This document shows positions 70 through 17,341 of a DNA stretch of 17,542 nt, piece after piece. A program made the translations under genes and the position numbers. Source of the DNA: Myxococcota bacterium (lineage in GTDB: Bacteria; Myxococcota; UBA4151); assembly GCA_036338695.1 (NCBI GenBank), contig JAYZBQ010000069.1:1-17542 (forward strand), written 5' to 3'. Each line of letters starts with the position of its first letter. Position 1 is the stretch's first letter. The notes beneath the pieces are model-generated. The model worked only from the letters and a program-made list of their open reading frames with translations, ran no database searches and had not been told where the DNA came from.

Positions 70-1095
70 ATGTCGGATCAGATCCTTGCAGCGGAGCTCG
101 AAGGGGGCGCAGGGGGGCTTGAGAAGGCGCTTCGGCCGCGTGGGTTCGATGACTACATCGGCCAGCCAGAGATCAAGGAGAACCTCGGCGTCTTCGTCGA
201 CGCCGCTCGCCAGCGGCGCAGCGCGCTGTGTCATGTTTTGCTGCACGGTCCCCCTGGCCTCGGAAAGACGAGCCTCGCCCACGTCGTCGCACGCGAGATG
301 GAGGCGGAGCTGGTGGTCACCTCGGGCCCGTCGCTTGAGCGGCAGGGTGACCTGGCTGGTATCCTGACCGGCTTAGAGCACGGCTCGATCCTCTTTATCG
401 ACGAGATCCATCGCTTGAGTCCTGTGGTGGAGGAGAACCTCTATTCGGCGATGGAAGACTTCCGGTTTGACGTCGTCATCGGCGATGGGCCGGGCGCACG
501 CACGGTCCCGATCACGCTGGAGCCGTTCACGCTCATTGGCGCCACCACGCGCACCGGCTTGTTGACCGGTCCGCTACGAGATCGGTTCGGCTACACGGCT
601 CGACTCGAGTATTATGACGTCCCCGATCTGCAATTCATTATCGAGCGCGCAGCCGGGCTGCTGGGCGTCTCGATCGACCCTCAAGCGACGCAAGAGCTTG
701 CGACGCGTTCGCGCGGGACCCCCCGGATTGCGAACCGGCTTCTGCGGCGAGTTCGGGATTATGCCGAAGTGGTCGGCGGTGGCACGATCGACGTGGAGAT
801 CACGCGCCACGCCTTGACGCGACTCGGCGTGGATCCGCTCGGCTTGGACCGCCTGGATCTGAGTTATCTGGAGATGCTGATCGAGCAGTTCCGGGGTGGA
901 CCGGTGGGAATTGAGACGCTGGCGGCGGCGGTCGGTGAGCAGGCCGATACGCTCCAAGATGTCTGCGAGCCCTACCTCATGAAGCTCGGCTTTTTGCAGC
1001 GAACGCCGCGCGGGCGAATGGCGGCCGCGCGTGCGTTTGCGCACTTGGGTCATGATGCCTTAGCGCCCGATCAGGAAAAACTGCCCAATATTTAG
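70..1095 (+). CDS. ruvB: Holliday junction branch migration helicase RuvB
   Basis: LRP..F.DYIGQ N-terminus, Walker A GPPGLGKT, Walker [37 protein letters not shown] and RTPRGR motifs. Confidence 0.98.
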
Positions 1096-1165
1096 GCTGT
1101 TATATCGGGCGTTGATGTCCGACCCGACGCCTTTGCGGCGCAGAAGACGCCTTATTCCACAGTTT

Positions 1166-1178
1166 TATCAGCTTCTTA
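1166..1178. promoter_or_regulatory. Putative IHF binding site upstream of lpxC
   Basis: TATCAGCTTCTTA matches WATCARNNNNTTR. It lies in an AT-rich patch ~30 bp upstream of a sigma54-type motif. Confidence 0.45.
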
Positions 1179-1205
1179 GTGCGATTACGACGAATGACGT
1201 AGGCG

Positions 1206-1221
1206 CGGCACGAACCTTGCT
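1206..1221 (+). promoter_or_regulatory. Putative sigma54 (-24/-12) promoter for lpxC
   Basis: CGGCACGAACCTTGCT has GG(1207-1208)-N10-GC(1219-1220) and matches TGGCACG-N4-TTGCW except at the first base. It is intergenic and ~46 nt before the probable start codon. Confidence 0.6.
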
Positions 1222-2321: not shown

Positions 2322-3977
2322 ATGTCAGAAGAGACCCCCGCGTCGCCTACCGTCGAGGTAGAAGCACCTGCTAAACCCAAGCGCCGCACGCGCTCCAAAA
2401 AGGGAGCTGCCGGTGAGGGGGCTTCCGAGGCGGCGCCCAAGCCAGAGGCTTCCGAGGCTTCCAGCAAGCGGACCGAGGCGGCGGCTACGCCCGATGCGGC
2501 AGCCGCGTCATCAGGCGACGGCGGGAAGAGTGAGTCGGATCAAGGCGCCTCGGAGGGCGGTCGAGACCGAAACCGTCGCCGCAGCCGAAACAACCGCAAC
2601 AACCGAAGCCATGAAGGCAACCGCCGAGGGCGTCGTCGCCGTCGTCGAGGGGGCGGATTGCCGGAGATGGAGGACATCCAGCCCGACGCCGACCTGCCCG
2701 AGGTCGTCGCCACTGCCTGCGGTGAGCAGGTGGTGATGGCGCAAGTGCTTCAGATGAAGACGCGTGAGTTGACCAAGATGGCGAAGGACCTGAAGGTGGA
2801 GGACCCCGACGATTACCGTTGGGCCGAGCTGGTCGCGGTGGTTCTTGAGTCGCACTACGAGGCTGGCGGCCGCATTGCAGCCGATTGCGTGGTGGAGGTG
2901 CTCCCGGAGCGCTACGGCATGCTCCGGTTTCATCACAACGACTACACGCGCAGCGACTGGGATATCTACGTCTCGCCGAGTATGGTGCGCCGCTACAACC
3001 TGAAAACGGGTGACTCCATTAAGGGGTTCATTCGGCCTCCGAAGGAGGGCGAAAAGCTCTGGGCTTTGCTCAAGATTGAGGCGGTCACCGGCGATGATCC
3101 GTTGAGTAACCGCTTCAAGCTCGGGTTTGATAACCTGACGCCGCTTTACCCGGAGGAGCGCCTCCACCTCGAGACGCTGCCGGACGCGATGGCGAGCCGA
3201 ATTATCGATCTGCTCGTACCCATTGGCAAAGGTCAGCGCGCGCTGGTCGTTGCCCCGCCGCGAGCGGGGAAGACCGTGCTGCTTCAAGATTTGGCGCGCA
3301 GCGTCGCAACCAACCATCCCGAGGCGCACTTGATCGTCTTGTTGGTTGATGAGCGTCCCGAAGAGGTGACGGACATGGTCCGGTCGGTCCGGGGTGAGGT
3401 GATCTCATCGACCTTCGATGAGCCGGCTGCGCGCCACGTCCAGGTGGCCGAGATGGTGATTCAAAAGGCCAAGCGGCTGGTGGAACACAAGCAGGACGTC
3501 GTGATCTTGTTGGATTCGATCACCCGGTTGGCTCGCGCGTACAACCAGGTCGTCCCAGCCTCTGGCAAGATCCTGACGGGCGGTGTGGACTCCAACGCGC
3601 TGCAGAAGCCCAAGCGCTTTTTCGGCGCCGCACGGAACATCGAAGAGGGTGGCTCCCTGACCATCATTGCGACGGCGTTGATCGACACGGGCTCACGCAT
3701 GGACGAGGTGATCTTTGAGGAGTTCAAAGGCACCGGGAACTCAGAGATTCATCTGGACCGCAAGCTCATGGAGAAGCGGATCTTCCCGTGTCTCGACATC
3801 AACAAGAGCGCCACGCGTAAAGAGGAGCTGCTCATCGACGAGGTCAGCTTGAACCGTGTGTGGATTCTGCGGCAGCTGCTTCACCCGCTCAACGTGATCG
3901 ACTCGATGGAGTTCCTGCTGAGCAAGCTCAAGAGCACGAAGTCCAACCGAGAGTTCTTGGATTCGATGAATGGTTAA
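2322..3977 (+). CDS. rho: Transcription termination factor Rho with N-terminal low-complexity extension
   Basis: DIYVSPS..RR..LKTGD RNA-binding domain, PIGKGQR, P-loop [40 protein letters not shown] and FEEFKGTGN motifs. Confidence 0.98.
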
Positions 3978-4026
3978 TGCCTAATTTTTGGGCGGTGTGT
4001 GGTCACTCGTGTCGCTTGGTGGGTTG

Positions 4027-4039
4027 TAAGTCATTGAAA
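4027..4039. promoter_or_regulatory. Putative IHF binding site
   Basis: TAAGTCATTGAAA matches the reverse complement of the IHF consensus (YAANNNNTTGATW) with one mismatch. It lies 20 bp upstream of a sigma54 motif, the usual location. Confidence 0.55.
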
Positions 4040-4057
4040 ACGAAGCTTCATAGCGCA

Positions 4058-4074
4058 TTGGCACAGGCGTTGCG
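4058..4074 (+). promoter_or_regulatory. Sigma54 (-24/-12) promoter
   Basis: TTGGCACAGGCGTTGCG = TGGCAC-N5-TTGC, with GG 4060-4061 and GC 4072-4073 exactly 10 nt apart. Predicted +1 is near 4083-4085. Confidence 0.75.
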
Positions 4075-4124
4075 ACTTCTTAAGGTGAAGCTCGGCACTT
4101 TACCTATTTCAAACGGACTCGGGT

Positions 4125-4140
4125 ACACACACACACACAC
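4125..4140 (+). repeat. (AC)8 dinucleotide tract
   Basis: ACACACACACACACAC read directly. It is the only long simple repeat noticed in the window. Confidence 0.95.
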
Positions 4141-4151
4141 CGCTGAACTTC

Positions 4152-4189
4152 GACACTTTGAACCGGGTGACCGGTTCTTAGTGTTTTTT
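4152..4189 (+). terminator. Intrinsic terminator
   Basis: ACACT-TT-GAACCGG-GTGA(GNRA loop)-CCGGTTC-TT-AGTGT, running into T6 (4184-4189). Confidence 0.7.
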
Positions 4190-4203
4190 GAGCGAGCTTC
4201 TCG

Positions 4204-5655
4204 ATGACGACGCGCATTGTGATCTCAACGATACCGGGTGAGATGCGCGTGGCGCAGCTTGAGGACGCTCGCACTGTGGATCTGCAGGTTGAGCGCCGTC
4301 ACGAGCGATCGGGTGTTGGTAACATCTATCTGGGCACCGTGGCGCGCGTGCTGCCGGGGATGCAGGCGGCGTTTGTGGACATCGGCCTCGCTAAGGCGGG
4401 CTTCCTTTACGTCGCCGATCTAGCCGGTGATCATGACGAGGAGACGCGCTCGCGCATCGAAGATGTGATCCAGCCGGGCGACACGCTCTTGGTCCAGGTT
4501 CAGAAGGCGCCGATCTCGACCAAGGGGGCGCGGCTGACCTGCCAGATCAGCCTGCCGGGACGTCATCTGGTGATGATGCCGACGAGTGATCACATCGGGA
4601 TCAGCAGGCGACTCGAGGACGAGGCGGAGCGTGATCGGCTGCGCGACCTGATCCTGACGCACCGCTCGACAGCGGCGACGGGCTACATCGCACGAACCGC
4701 AGCGGACGGAGCGGACGAGCAGGCGATCCGCCGGGACATCGTCTTCCTCGATCGCCTCTGGAGGGTGATCCGAGAGACCATGAAGACCGCTGCGGTCCCG
4801 AGCTTGATCTGGGAAGATCTACCTCTTCACCTCCGGACACTACGGGACATCAGCTCCGACGGGCCGGTCGAGATCCTCTGTGATGACCCTGAGCTCTGTG
4901 AGGAGGTGACCGCCTTTTTGGCGCGGCTGGAACCGGAGCAGTCGATCGACGTGCACCTCTGGCGTGGCCGCGAGTCGATCTGGGATCATTTTGGCGTCGG
5001 TGACGAGATGCGGCGCGCACTGGGGCGGAAGGTGTGGCTCAAGTCGGGTGGCTCGATCATCATCGACCAGGCCGAGGCCTTGACCGCGATCGACATCAAC
5101 ACCGGCTCCTACGTGGGGCAGTCCAACCCGGCGGAGACGATCCTTCGAACCAACCTCGAGGCGATCCCCGAGATCGTTCATCAGCTGCGCTTACGAAATC
5201 TCGGTGGGATGATCATCATCGATTTTATCGATATGGAGGCCGAGGCACACCGTACGATGGTGACGGACGCGCTTGAACAAGCCCTCAAGCGCGACCCGGG
5301 GCGCACGCAAGTGCACGCCATGACAGGCTTGGGGTTGGTTGAGCTGACCCGCAAGCGGGTGCGAGAGAGCCTCGGTCGACAGCTGTCGGAGCCGTGCTTT
5401 TATTGCGACGGTCGGGGTGTACTCCAGAGCCGGCTGACGACCGCCTTTGAGGTGTTCCGAGATTTTGCCGTGCGGAGCACCGTGACCGACGCACCGGCGC
5501 TGGTGGCGAATGTTCACCCAGAGGTCCATGACCTCATCTTGGATCAGCTGCCTGAGTCGCTAGCCGAGCTGTCGGAGCGCCTCGGCAAGGAGCTGAGGGT
5601 GCAACCCAAGGGAAGCTACCATCTCGAGCAGTTTGACGTGTATGCAGCAAAGTAA
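4204..5655 (+). CDS. rng: Ribonuclease G (Rne/Rng family)
   Basis: S1 domain GNIYLG.V.RVLPGMQAAFVDIG, KGARLT, catalytic AIDINTG and GGMIIIDFIDM, Zn-link C..C.G (CFYCDG). 483 aa, with no RNase E C-terminal scaffold. Confidence 0.93.
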   Translation: MTTRIVISTIPGEMRVAQLEDARTVDLQVERRHERSGVGNIYLGTVARVLPGMQAAFVDIGLAKAGFLYVADLAGDHDEETRSRIEDVIQPGDTLLVQVQKAPISTKGARLTCQISLPGRHLVMMPTSDHIGISRRLEDEAERDRLRDLILTHRSTAATGYIARTAADGADEQAIRRDIVFLDRLWRVIRETMKTAAVPSLIWEDLPLHLRTLRDISSDGPVEILCDDPELCEEVTAFLARLEPEQSIDVHLWRGRESIWDHFGVGDEMRRALGRKVWLKSGGSIIIDQAEALTAIDINTGSYVGQSNPAETILRTNLEAIPEIVHQLRLRNLGGMIIIDFIDMEAEAHRTMVTDALEQALKRDPGRTQVHAMTGLGLVELTRKRVRESLGRQLSEPCFYCDGRGVLQSRLTTAFEVFRDFAVRSTVTDAPALVANVHPEVHDLILDQLPESLAELSERLGKELRVQPKGSYHLEQFDVYAAK

Positions 5656-6838
5656 CGAGCCCGCAGCCTTGTTGACCATGTTCTCGCCGCTTCCCGGTAG
5701 TGGGGCATCGGCTCGCTCGCTTTACGCGCTGGCCCGGCTCATGCGGCGCTGGATGCACATCGACGTCATCGCGCCTCGGCGGCGCGGTCAGCGCTACACG
5801 GAGTCAAACGGTGAGGGGCGGGTCTACCGTGTCCCGCTCGGTGGGGTCGATTACGGTCCAGACGCTGAAGGGCGTTTTTTGCGCGCCGTCCAGCGGCAGC
5901 TTCGGGCGCAGCCCTATGACGTCGTGGTGGCAGGCGACCCGTTGAGCGTCTTGGCGGCTCGGCACGCCGGGGTGGATGATCTCAAGATCGTGTACTGCTT
6001 GCGCGAGCTGCGCTCAGCCGAGCTCACCGACTTTGGTCCGCGCCTGCGACAGGCGCTCGGCGTCGCCGACAAAATCGTCCTGCCGACGGAGGCGGCGCGC
6101 GATGCGCTCATCACCTCCGGTCTGGAGGCGTCCCGGCTGGAGGTCGTTCCACCTTATCTCGAGCTGCGTTCGTTGATCGCAACCGAGCGGCATCCGTTTC
6201 GTCAGCGGTTGGTGTTGTTAGGCGTCGATCGACCTCAGCGGCTCGTATCGGTCTCTGCTCAGCTGCTCGACGCGCTGCCGGCAGAGTGGTCTTTGATCGT
6301 GCCGAGCGATGGGGGTCAGACCCGAGAAGAATTGAAGATGTTGGGGGAGGGTTCCGAGCCCACTCGACTTCAGCTGCCCCTGGCGTGGCCACCGCAGCGT
6401 TGGGGGCGTCACCTCGCTCGAGGGGGGGTCGCGCTCGTGTTCGAGCGTGATGAGGCGAACATGGAGCTGGATTTGCCGTGTGGTGATCGTCTGCTCGCGC
6501 GCGCAGCCGGGCTACCGGTGGTGGTCGTGCCGGACGATGGGACCGCTGCGGACATCCTCGAGGCGGTCGGCGAGCATGAGCAGACCGACTCGCCTGAGCC
6601 GAGTGACCTCGGTACGTGGCCACGGCTGGCTGATCTTTTGGCGCAGTGGGCTGGGATTATGGGCGTCACGCCCGAGCTTCTGGATGAGGCGGTGAGTGAC
6701 GAAGCCACCGCGAGTGACTCGTACCGTGGTAGCGGGACGGCGACGCGCACGGACTGGGTGGAGACGGACTTGAGCCGGGCGGACTCGACCAGCAGCTCGT
6801 ATGAGCTCAGTCAGAACACCGGGGTGCACTCCGACTGA
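5642..6838 (+). CDS. GT4 (GT-B fold) glycosyltransferase-like protein, degenerate C-terminal domain, acidic Ser/Thr tail
   Basis: The N-terminal half resembles the GT4 N-domain (G.....ALAR...HIDVIAP, RVYRVP, YDVVV, ADKIVLPTEAARDAL...G...RLEVVPP), and an AAGLPVV motif follows. ATG 5642 is preferred over TTG 5633 and overlaps the rng stop. Confidence 0.6.
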   Translation: MQQSNEPAALLTMFSPLPGSGASARSLYALARLMRRWMHIDVIAPRRRGQRYTESNGEGRVYRVPLGGVDYGPDAEGRFLRAVQRQLRAQPYDVVVAGDPLSVLAARHAGVDDLKIVYCLRELRSAELTDFGPRLRQALGVADKIVLPTEAARDALITSGLEASRLEVVPPYLELRSLIATERHPFRQRLVLLGVDRPQRLVSVSAQLLDALPAEWSLIVPSDGGQTREELKMLGEGSEPTRLQLPLAWPPQRWGRHLARGGVALVFERDEANMELDLPCGDRLLARAAGLPVVVVPDDGTAADILEAVGEHEQTDSPEPSDLGTWPRLADLLAQWAGIMGVTPELLDEAVSDEATASDSYRGSGTATRTDWVETDLSRADSTSSSYELSQNTGVHSD

Positions 6839-8238
6839 TGGACGCCTATCCCTCCGAGAAGTTGCGCGCCCTTCGAGGAGCGCTCGTGCGCGCCAGCTTG
6901 GCGCAACCGATCGGCGCGCGGTCGAGCTACCGATGCCTCAGGCTAGGCCTTAACCTTGGACTCCTGCACCACACATGGATCGACGGTCAGCGCTGTGAGT
7001 TGCCGGCTCGCCCGCCCGTCGAGCCGTTGGTCGCCGAGCTCGACGCGCTCGGCGAGCGTGCGCTCAGCGAGCTGACACCGCAGGTCGCGCTGGCCATGAC
7101 GCGTCGTCACCTCCAGCTGATTGGCGACGCGGACCGCTGGGCGAAGCGGCGCTGGAACGCCGAGGCGGTCAACCGGGAGACGGGTGCAGCGAAGCTGGCC
7201 GTTGCCGTCGGTGGTGGGGGAGGCTCGGCCTTCATCGCCCTGGGCGCGATCGACCTGCTCGATGGCATGTTGATCCACCCCGCGCTGCTTGCGGGAGCCT
7301 CCATGGGTTCGATCCTGAGCGCCTTTCGTGCGCGCAGTCTCTCGTATCAGGTCGAGTCCGTCATCGAGGAGACGGCCGAGCTGACGCGCGAGCGAGTCTT
7401 TGGCGTCTCGACGCTCAAGAGTCGCTATTCGATCCCGGCGACCATACGCTTGACGCTGCAGAAGGGGTTGGGACCCTTCTTTCGCAATGAGGACGGGTTC
7501 GGGATGCGCTTAGGTGATACGGCGATCCCCTTGAGGATCGTCGTCTCTGGGCTGGTGGGCGCACCGCCGCGCGATCTCGAGTTCTATCAATACTTGCTCG
7601 ACAAGAGCTGGACCGGCCGCTCGGTGCGTCGCTTAGTGTTTAACTTCACCCGCCTCGCCTCAGAGTTTGTCTTTGGCGACCAGGCGCTCAAGACCATCGT
7701 CATGGGCGGCGACGAGTTAACGGATGGCTTGAGCATCGTGGACGCCATCGGTTTTTCGAGCTCGATCCCTGGGGTGATCCACTATGACGTCGAGCGGCAT
7801 GACGATGACACCCACCGACGCTTGACCGAGCTGATGCACCATCACGGAGTCAGCCGTCTCTTGGACGGTGGCTTCAGCGAGAACGTCCCGACCGTTTCGT
7901 GCCGCGAAGCGATCGAGCAGGGCGTGACCGGTCAGATGCATACGCTGGTGCTCGGGCTCGATGGTTTTGCGCCCAATCTGCTCAAGTCGCCGTTGTGGGT
8001 TCCGGCGCAACAACTGCTCAGAGGGCAGATTGCGCGCGCCAAACGCACAGCGGACCATTGGCACGCGTTCAAGCAACCTCTGAGCCCGCTGCGGGTCGTG
8101 CCGAGCACCGCTGCGATGCGTACGATTCTGCAGACAGGGCGTGAGGAGTTCGCCGATCGAGCGAGTGAGCTGCGCGAGGCGCTCGTGGATGTTCGACCAG
8201 ACTACAGCACGCTCAAGCGCCGCTTGACACGGGCGTGA
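6838..8238 (+). CDS. Patatin-like phospholipase family protein
   Basis: Gly-rich oxyanion loop VGGGGG, nucleophile elbow GASMG (GxSxG) and catalytic DGG (LLDGGFSENVP). TGATG overlap with the upstream gene. Confidence 0.88.
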   Translation: MDAYPSEKLRALRGALVRASLAQPIGARSSYRCLRLGLNLGLLHHTWIDGQRCELPARPPVEPLVAELDALGERALSELTPQVALAMTRRHLQLIGDADRWAKRRWNAEAVNRETGAAKLAVAVGGGGGSAFIALGAIDLLDGMLIHPALLAGASMGSILSAFRARSLSYQVESVIEETAELTRERVFGVSTLKSRYSIPATIRLTLQKGLGPFFRNEDGFGMRLGDTAIPLRIVVSGLVGAPPRDLEFYQYLLDKSWTGRSVRRLVFNFTRLASEFVFGDQALKTIVMGGDELTDGLSIVDAIGFSSSIPGVIHYDVERHDDDTHRRLTELMHHHGVSRLLDGGFSENVPTVSCREAIEQGVTGQMHTLVLGLDGFAPNLLKSPLWVPAQQLLRGQIARAKRTADHWHAFKQPLSPLRVVPSTAAMRTILQTGREEFADRASELREALVDVRPDYSTLKRRLTRA

Positions 8239-8278
8239 ACCGTCCCTAGAGACTGGCCCGTCTGTTAAGGATGGATCC

Positions 8279-9043
8279 ATGGCTGTAAATTTTCGCCCGC
8301 ACTATCGTCGTATCGACGACCTCACTGACAACCTCTTGGCGATGATTGACCCAGAGGGCTACGAGCTCCCGGAGCGGGTCCAAAAACGCATCGGCCGGCT
8401 CAAGCAGCAGTTGGAGTTGGCTTGGATCTTTCATGACTCCGGGCTGGACGGTACGGTCGTGACCTTTCATGAGATGCAGGCGGCGCTGAGTCGTCGCGTG
8501 GTCACGGACTCTTCATTGATGCCGCTGTATCAAGAGATCTGTAACCATCAAGAGGCGATTCACTACGGTCGCAAGGCGGCTGAGTCAGGGCGCCAGATCG
8601 ATCTCGAGTACGTGCGCGAGCTGCACCACATCCTGTGTCGCGACCTTCCGAACGTCCAGCCGGGGCGTTACCGCACCGAGATCATGCTGCACCGGGTTTA
8701 TCTCCATGACATCCACCGACCCGATCGCATCAGCTACCACCTCAACAAGCTGGTGCGCGACCTCTACGGTGAGGTGATGCAGAGCTACCACCCGATCAAG
8801 CGAGCGTGCAGCTTTCACCGCAGCTTTATGCACATCTTCCCGTTTCATCAGATGACCGGGAAGCTCGGTCGTTTGCTCATGAACCATATCCTGATCAGCA
8901 ACGATTACTTTCCGTGCGTGATGCACGTCAAAGATCGGCAGCGCTATTATCAGGCGCTGCGCGACTCGCTGGATGATGTGCGCCTGCTCGCCGTCGAGAG
9001 CATGGAGAACACGTTGCGGCACTCGGCGGAGAGCATCTCGTGA
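8279..9043 (+). CDS. Fic/DOC (Fido) fold protein with degenerate active-site motif
   Basis: Fic-like segments: WIFHDSGLDG, EI.NH.EA, VRELHHIL, PGRYR, HPI.RA..FH..F.HI, and RQRYYQAL. The signature reads FPFHQMTGKLGR instead of HPFxDGNGRxxR. Confidence 0.8.
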   Translation: MAVNFRPHYRRIDDLTDNLLAMIDPEGYELPERVQKRIGRLKQQLELAWIFHDSGLDGTVVTFHEMQAALSRRVVTDSSLMPLYQEICNHQEAIHYGRKAAESGRQIDLEYVRELHHILCRDLPNVQPGRYRTEIMLHRVYLHDIHRPDRISYHLNKLVRDLYGEVMQSYHPIKRACSFHRSFMHIFPFHQMTGKLGRLLMNHILISNDYFPCVMHVKDRQRYYQALRDSLDDVRLLAVESMENTLRHSAESIS

Positions 9044-16946: not shown

Positions 16947-17019
<73 letters not shown>

Positions 17020-17045
17020 CAAAATGATGGAGAAGCAATACTTTA

Positions 17046-17131
17046 GGAGGGGTACCCAAGCGGTCAACGGGAGCAGACTGTAAATCTGCCGTCTTTCGAC
17101 TACGTAGGTTCGAGTCCTACCCCCTCCACCA
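17046..17131 (+). tRNA. tRNA-Tyr (GTA)
   Basis: Acceptor GGAGGGG/CCCCTCC, anticodon arm GCAGA-CTGTAAA-TCTGC, long variable arm, TTCGAGT T-loop, encoded CCA. Confidence 0.97.
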
Positions 17132-17190
17132 TATTGTTTTGGAAGGAACACCACCGGGATAAACAGGTCGCAAAATACAATACATGGGCC

Positions 17191-17263
17191 GCGGGAGTAG
17201 CTCAGTTGGTAGAGCATCAGCCTTCCAAGCTGAATGTCGCGGGTTCGAGGCCCGTCTCCCGCT
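17191..17263 (+). tRNA. tRNA-Gly (TCC)
   Basis: Acceptor GCGGGAG/CTCCCGC, anticodon arm TCAGC-CTTCCAA-GCTGA and U73 discriminator. Followed by only CC before the next tRNA. Confidence 0.96.
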
Positions 17264-17265
17264 CC

Positions 17266-17341
<76 letters not shown>

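Follow-up and report, generated by a model that had tools for sequence, protein, structure and literature searches.

Organization of the rho-rng spacer

The window analysed here, i.e., the whole stretch of 17,542 nt that makes up positions 1-17542 of contig JAYZBQ010000069.1 (C69 of the source genome, G000), contains a 226-nt spacer bounded on one side by rho and on the other by a gene of the RNase E/G family (rng; Table 1). The N-terminal extension of Rho (encoded by 2322-2740) is of low complexity, spans ~140 aa, and includes an Arg/Asn/Gly-rich stretch. Downstream of rng (5633-9043) lie glycosyltransferase-family, patatin-like, and Fic-domain genes followed by nfo, and four tRNA genes are clustered at 16947-17338.

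The source organism belongs to a Myxococcota family that was sampled with six genomes from two genera and is known here from assembled genomes alone. One protein of the source genome has a near homologue, 84% identical, that carries a Myxococcota label. Eight orthologous sequences were compared, namely those of the six family genomes (G002 contributing the promoter-RNA-rng portion only) and two metagenome loci, L064 and L068. The latter came from a metagenome scan in which four of 23 loci were true orthologues and 19 were discarded as chance matches; of the other two orthologues, L075 duplicated L064 and L065 was truncated. The order rho-spacer-rng was found in 5/30 rho loci, every one within the family. 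A scan of genome contigs for rng yielded 80 distant loci, none of which had rho, a sigma54 box, or an AC tract upstream.

Table 1. Features of the rho-rng locus (positions in the 17,542-nt window).
Feature	Position	Strand	Remarks
Second palindrome copy (1082-1098) and sigma54-like box (1206-1220)	1082-1220	+	Upstream of lpxC-rho
rho, long N-terminal extension	2322-3977	+	TIGR00767, 644.8 bits, above cut-off
17-bp palindrome, predicted sigma54-activator (bEBP) site	3978-3994		81 bp 5' of the -24 box
Arm of the rod proposed in the initial annotation	3992-4024	+	Complementarity to sRNA loop confined to this genome; 32/32 pairs
IHF-like site	4027-4039		Between enhancer and promoter
Predicted sigma54 -24/-12 promoter	4059-4073	+	TGGCAY-N5-TTGC, 12-13 nt 5' of a conserved GAAG; 8/8 sequences
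Predicted sRNA, ~103 nt, 5' end inferred	4087-4189	+	Genus-wide identity, 81%
Closing stem P1 (4087-4096 with 4142-4151), ~45-nt loop	4087-4151	+	100% of cells paired, 8 sequences
Pairing region (GGACUCGGG, AC tract, start of P1 3' strand)	4113-4145	+	Complementary to the sigma-factor leader
Intrinsic terminator	4152-4189	+	Double changes at 5/11 pairs
RNase E/G family gene (rng-like)	4204-5655	+	TIGR00757 above cut-off; Pfam RNase_E_G; RNase G model scores best, short of its cut-off

The initial annotation, made from this sequence alone, treated the beginning of the spacer as a rho 3' UTR and assumed a sigma54-initiated transcript downstream of it. The promoter assumption was supported by the recurrence of the -24/-12 motif in all eight orthologous sequences, and 4059-4073 is one of eight strict sigma54 sites in the genome. 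rpoN was present in 5/5 genomes and seven bEBPs were counted in G000. Upstream of the box stands the 17-bp palindrome, which by its likeness to the consensus we take to be a bEBP site; its distance to the -24 box is kept in relatives (80-81 bp), and in 4/4 DNA runs a strain SNP, 3990 G>A, makes the palindrome more perfect. The segment between them, which we presume from its consensus to be IHF-like, is 83% identical across the genus at 4026-4038, and the sister genus has an A-rich site that was read by eye as having the opposite orientation. Judged by these motifs, the "rho 3' UTR" is mainly a putative sigma54 enhancer region, made up of palindrome, IHF-like site, and -24/-12 box.

The second palindrome lies at the ruvB end, 124 bp 5' of its sigma54-like box, and both elements recur in the loci of G003, G004, and G005. 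One activator may drive both lpxC-rho and the sRNA; we can only speculate that the signal it would answer to comes from the envelope. Elsewhere in G000 the palindrome recurs in near-perfect form at C74:1258, C38:4522, and C30:20932. The first of these precedes ~350 nt of AT-rich non-coding DNA and has no sigma54 box within 250 nt.

No terminator-like site was detected on the + strand between 1000 and 4160, the part that follows the rho stop codon included, in agreement with the earlier premise of a rho read-through transcript. The rho mRNA is thus predicted to end at the sRNA terminator, which would be common to the sRNA and to rho read-through RNA. Since rng starts 14 nt past the terminator U tract, it would depend on read-through of this same terminator. 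In one RNA run, available at contig level, contigs covered part of rho and 4205-4474 and none covered 3974-4204, so that the run is uninformative on the sRNA; the contig that begins at 4205 is a weak hint of read-through into rng.

A conserved element with the features of a small RNA

The initial annotation placed a candidate sRNA with an exposed AC tract downstream of the rho 3' UTR, and this prediction gained support from the conserved element at 4087-4189. A model of it (R1) matched 6/6 family genomes at E <= 1.6e-22, with a single copy per genome. In the consensus structure, 96.3% of 160 cells were paired (slid controls, 31-49%) and 7/20 pairs had double changes; within P1, changes on both sides were seen at 2/9 pairs. 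P1, and not the earlier "5' hairpin" at 4083-4105, is the conserved 5' structure. The loop that P1 closes holds CUCGGG and an (AC)n repeat, the only tract of at least five AC units in the genome. Four DNA runs of close strains had listed differences at 3990, 4018, 4042, and 4083 and none in 4087-4189, in a comparison in which two contigs carried one further, unlisted difference and one run left 4045-4133 uncovered. Ten differences, only part of them listed, were counted in a more distant contig that spans 4084-4553, and one contig had a 2-nt deletion near 4145.

The element appears confined to the family. An Rfam search of the whole window at E <= 5 had no match in the spacer, the DsrA, RprA, and ArcZ families included. 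Outside the family, R1 had no true match among 145 genomes; the weak matches there (6/145; E 3e-4 to 0.14), along with a second match in G002, proved on inspection to be terminators or coding DNA. A combined promoter-plus-AC pattern was found in 5/401 genomes, all in the family, and in none of the 395 genomes outside it; G003 escaped the pattern because its AC tract is interrupted. A 15-mer search with one mismatch was discarded: it matched 203/401 genomes, its reversed control also matched often, and the 30 loci fetched were without sigma54 box, rho, or rng. A literature search that covered few subscription papers returned no paper on this RNA. Taken as a whole, the sequence comparison makes it likely that 4087-4189 is a small RNA gene with a predicted sigma54 promoter.

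The leader of a group 2 sigma factor as predicted target

When the loop was scanned against 2722 start regions of G000, with gene starts from a rough in-house gene caller, the leader of G000:C56:35931-37118(-) ranked first at -44.5 kcal/mol (background mean -15.0, SD 3.5; runner-up -33.9). Among 3381 seeded windows, too, no other non-self site scored better. The protein encoded there has Pfam sigma-70 regions 1.2, 2, 3, and 4 and no region 1.1; it scored 240.9 bits against the RpoS model TIGR02394 (cut-off 378.7) and also missed the RpoD cut-off, and RpoD is encoded by a separate gene. By domain content, the target gene is a group 2 sigma-70 factor. Two second-tier complements of the loop were noted in C48 of G000, one in the groES upstream region (409044-409066; -28.0) and one at about 139830-139850, just 5' of the SD of a 214-aa gene (139175-139819; -33.3).

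Orthologues of the sigma-factor gene were found in G001, G002, G004, and G005; it was not found in G003, which is 59% complete. In the five genomes with the gene, which are kin from two genera, the sRNA is predicted to pair over ~30 nt at about -49 to -18 of the leader, with energies of -38.5 to -52.4 kcal/mol that were equalled by 0/300 leader shuffles in each genome. The leaders of seven other sigma genes, their start codons guessed, gave -8.4 to -18.5 kcal/mol. Changes on the two RNAs compensate each other: one seed position is G-C in G000, G-U in G001, and A-U in G002 and G004; two adjacent C-G pairs of G000 are U-A and A-U in G001; and compensated changes occur at both ends of the duplex. 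The cognate matching of sRNAs to leaders ranked second of 120 permutations. In the sister genus net binding was modest (-9.8 and -11.2), and the seed of G005 has an internal loop. For 16 distantly related sigma factors (40-46% identity), nothing comparable to the site was found up to 400 nt from the match (-13.6 to -27.2), a distance beyond which the true leader of several may lie. The three sigma-gene loci searched against Rfam at gathering score had no match. We infer that the leader is ~75 nt long and transcribed across the pairing site. Upstream of the sigma-factor gene, which follows anmK, a TGTGA-N6-TCAC site (about 4220-4236 of locus L202) is invariant in 5/5 leaders; it is presumably CRP/FNR-family-like.

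The position of the site bears on the direction of regulation. Folding of the individual leaders, and of their consensus, always predicted a hairpin over the GGAGG SD, and the site overlaps its 5' (anti-SD) strand in 5/5 genomes. Since the site ends 5-8 nt 5' of the SD, the SD itself is left uncovered. With the site occupied, the cost of opening SD-AUG was predicted to drop by 2.8, 2.8, 8.5, 6.8, and 4.7 kcal/mol in the five genomes, to a residual 5.8-9.5 kcal/mol, and the unpaired fraction from SD to AUG went up in 5/5 cofolds. The unpaired probability of GGAGG alone went up only in G004 and G005 (from 0.20 to 0.54 and 0.47) and went slightly down in G000 (0.58 to 0.51), G001 (0.48 to 0.34), and G002 (0.41 to 0.34). 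Because GGAGG alone rises in two of five, the case for activation rests on the wider SD-to-AUG window.

These results suggest the following model. A bEBP bound at 3978-3994 would activate sigma54 polymerase at 4059-4073, and the resulting RNA would nucleate through its single-stranded AC loop on the GU-rich leader. The duplex would then grow through CUCGGG into the 3' strand of P1, capturing the anti-SD strand of the leader hairpin, so that SD-AUG would be freed and the sigma factor translated. Hfq was found in 0/5 genomes checked (85-94% complete; G002, 85%), and a duplex of this length would dispense with a chaperone. It is very probable that the RNA exists and pairs with the sigma-factor leader, and probable that it activates the sigma factor. 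The whole proposal, in which a sigma54-transcribed sRNA pairs with the leader of a group 2 sigma-70 mRNA and activates its translation by opening the RBS hairpin, is the reading that we favour with reasonable confidence.

Complementarity between the rho tail and the sRNA core

The initial annotation centred on another pairing, in which the rho tail, from 3992 onward, would fold onto the sRNA core as a ~150-nt rod, giving one locus two mutually exclusive RNA folds. As a description of the G000 sequence, the complementarity was confirmed. Position 3992 lies 15 nt past the rho stop (3975-3977), the segments named sit where they were placed, and 32/32 pairs are standard pairs. The MFE structure of 3978-4195 contained the helices 4005-4013/4116-4124, 4016-4019/4109-4112, and 4020-4024/4102-4106 and most of 3992-4001/4134-4143; it lacked the inner helix 4028-4032/4074-4078, 4028-4031 pairing with 4096-4099 instead. 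The segment 3978-4195, terminator included, folded better than shuffles (z = -4.12), as did the rod alone at 3991-4144 (z = -2.08; 4/200), the reverse complement of which gave z = -2.49. The 48 nt that follow the rho stop paired with the RNA core at -37.0 kcal/mol, equalled by 0/300 GC-matched genomic windows. The arm-core complementarity in G000 therefore exceeds naive chance, though it was picked after the fact.

Conservation of the rod in this register did not hold up. The four genus relatives retain 13-16 of the 32 pairs, and identity across the genus is 37% for the arm (3992-4024) and 28% for its strand 3992-4001, versus 89% for the core with which it pairs; on these values a conserved two-fold switch in this register is not supported, and the conservation check that the initial annotation had set for its own proposal turned out negative. 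In the alignment, the 3992-4001/4134-4143 helix was paired in 52% of cells, G000 included, and the rod as a whole in 58%, again including the genome from which it was drawn. The z-score of arm against core was -4.4 in G000 and at background (-0.7 to +1.1) in 7/7 other orthologues. A strain SNP, 4018 G>A, disrupts one rod pair.

Pairing in trans between the sRNA and rho mRNA, which had been offered as the alternative, is improbable as a function: rho ranked 12th of 2751 gene ends by its 3' end (-25.2 vs -44.5 for the sigma-factor leader), and the rho pairing is not conserved. That the arm of G000 resembles the target site follows from their complementarity to one and the same sRNA loop.

A reduced form of the switch fits alongside activation as a modifier. 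In it, rho read-through RNA of this genus would fold back and mask the sRNA loop, while the short, sigma54-initiated form would be fully active. For the long form of G000, the predicted accessibility of the seed fell from 0.72 to 0.35, and in 4/5 genus sequences it fell from about 0.7 to 0.31-0.36; these accessibilities, however, lie inside the shuffle range (2, 6, 1, 2, 8 of 20). The whole upstream region paired with the core better than genomic windows in 5/5 genus sequences (1, 0, 2, 3, and 6 of 300) and better than shuffles (2, 0, 2, 2, and 3 of 150), and cognate matching of upstream region to core ranked first of 24 permutations. In part, this genus signal comes from one common element, the IHF-like TTGAWA against TWTCAA, and three sister-genus sequences that likewise follow rho without a terminator had no excess (107, 259, and 231 of 300). 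Binding by the long form in G000 was weaker than in 12/12 shuffled controls, but masking cost no more than about 3 kcal/mol in either G000 or G001 and nothing in G002. On the genus alignment the rod had five pairs with double changes, and just 3-27 of 500 shuffles reached its measures; against this stand the 58% of cells paired and a register that is not fixed, the upstream segments used differing by species. Template switching at a quasi-palindrome could also yield species-specific complementarity. Finally, the 51 nt available upstream of the enhancer in G002 (end of C31; L084), where the contig stops, do not encode the C-terminus of Rho, and a search of this genome, which is 85% complete, found no rho. 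We consider such masking unlikely. Most likely, the arm in the rho tail is restricted to this lineage and at most weakens target binding by read-through RNA.

Other readings of the element

The leader pairing could also repress, if RNase III or RNase E/G cleaved the ~30-bp duplex or if the duplex blocked a ribosome standby site. The length of the duplex, the adjoining RNase E/G gene, and the three of five cofolds without a rise in SD-only unpaired probability would suit such an outcome. Repression is nevertheless improbable, given that in 5/5 leaders the site stops short of the SD, lies partly over the anti-SD strand, and lowers the opening cost when occupied.

In another reading, the element serves chiefly in cis, as a leader or attenuator of rng that is transcribed from the sigma54 promoter. 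In its favour are the place of the element next to rng in 6/6 family genomes, including G002 where no rho was seen upstream, and the lack of room for a separate rng promoter in the 14 nt past the U tract. We give this reading little credence, as no conserved antiterminator was apparent by eye and the distant leader, with its covariation, accounts for the conserved loop; the roles of rng leader and sRNA could coexist.

A protein decoy, in which the AC loop would bind CsrA, a single RRM protein, or Rho itself, is very improbable. CsrA and an RRM protein are encoded in 5/5 genomes and the C-rich loop lies beside rho, but the loop has at most one GGA, lost in G002, rather than the several conserved GGA motifs of the CsrB/RsmZ type, and covariation with an mRNA leader indicates base pairing. 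The idea that the rod is a 6S RNA, prompted by its predicted ~150-nt irregular shape, can be dismissed, the rod not being conserved and RF00013 having no match in the window at E <= 5. Elsewhere in G000, C57:6965-7145 resembles 6S RNA weakly over its full length (29.3 bits, short of the cut-off), as does a weak match in G001.

Comparison with known systems

DapZ and MicL are 3'-end sRNAs that have their own promoter and a terminator in common with the mRNA. The present candidate resembles them in that its promoter lies just past the upstream gene and its terminator would be common with the mRNA of that gene; unlike theirs, its promoter is of the sigma54 type and lies entirely within the spacer. 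GlmY and CrcZ are sRNAs driven by sigma54 and a bEBP from an architecture of enhancer, IHF-like site, and -24/-12 box. The same is described for Qrr (PMC13501541). The predicted elements of the spacer are arranged alike, whereas the sRNA is unrelated in sequence to Qrr, GlmY, or CrcZ (no Rfam match), and those RNAs are Hfq-dependent or protein decoys.

Closest in mode of action are DsrA, RprA, and ArcZ of E. coli, trans-acting sRNAs that pair in the rpoS 5' leader and open the stem-loop at its RBS (PMC6537650; PMC13501541). The predicted pairing likewise falls in the leader of a non-primary sigma-70 mRNA and would open an RBS hairpin. Unlike those sRNAs, the candidate has no Rfam match and a predicted sigma54 promoter, Hfq was not found, the leader is short (presumably ~75 nt) with a local hairpin, and it is an AC repeat in a stem-closed loop that pairs; unlike rpoS, the target falls below the RpoS cut-off. 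By this analogy, the sRNA likely works like DsrA and RprA on rpoS and is not a member of those families.

Within the Myxococcota, Pxr of Myxococcus xanthus is described as an RNA of ~100 nt with three stem-loops, located downstream of nla19, with a predicted sigma54 promoter and enhancer and an intrinsic terminator (PMC5568312). The candidate shares with Pxr the phylum, size, promoter type, and terminator type; it differs from Pxr in having one closing stem with a large loop and a rho-rng location, and model R1 had no match in 21 genomes of the largest family sampled. A preprint on the M. xanthus interactome states that this species lacks Hfq and names targets of Pxr and MXnc1 that lie near SD sequences (10.1101/2025.09.11.675593).

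Implications

The analysis adds a new candidate sRNA, with a target backed by covariation, in a Myxococcota family in which Hfq was not found. The rod is of lesser weight, being a lead for lineage-specific self-masking and no conserved switch. A broader and rather doubtful extension would combine all of these elements into a chaperone-free sigma cascade: one bEBP would act through sigma54 on both lpxC-rho and the sRNA, the sRNA would act on an alternative sigma-70 by an AC-nucleated duplex of ~30 bp, and the rho tail of one genus would have evolved independent, target-mimicking arms for self-masking, such that only promoter-born RNA signals.

The sRNA-leader pair is small and self-contained and therefore open to reporter assays in a laboratory strain. 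If the proposed activation is true, sRNAs came to unlock the translation of a non-primary sigma factor a further time, outside the enterobacteria, and the pair would be a natural case for how long duplexes stand in for a chaperone. For these bacteria, it would mean that sigma54 signalling is tied to a sigma-70 regulon.
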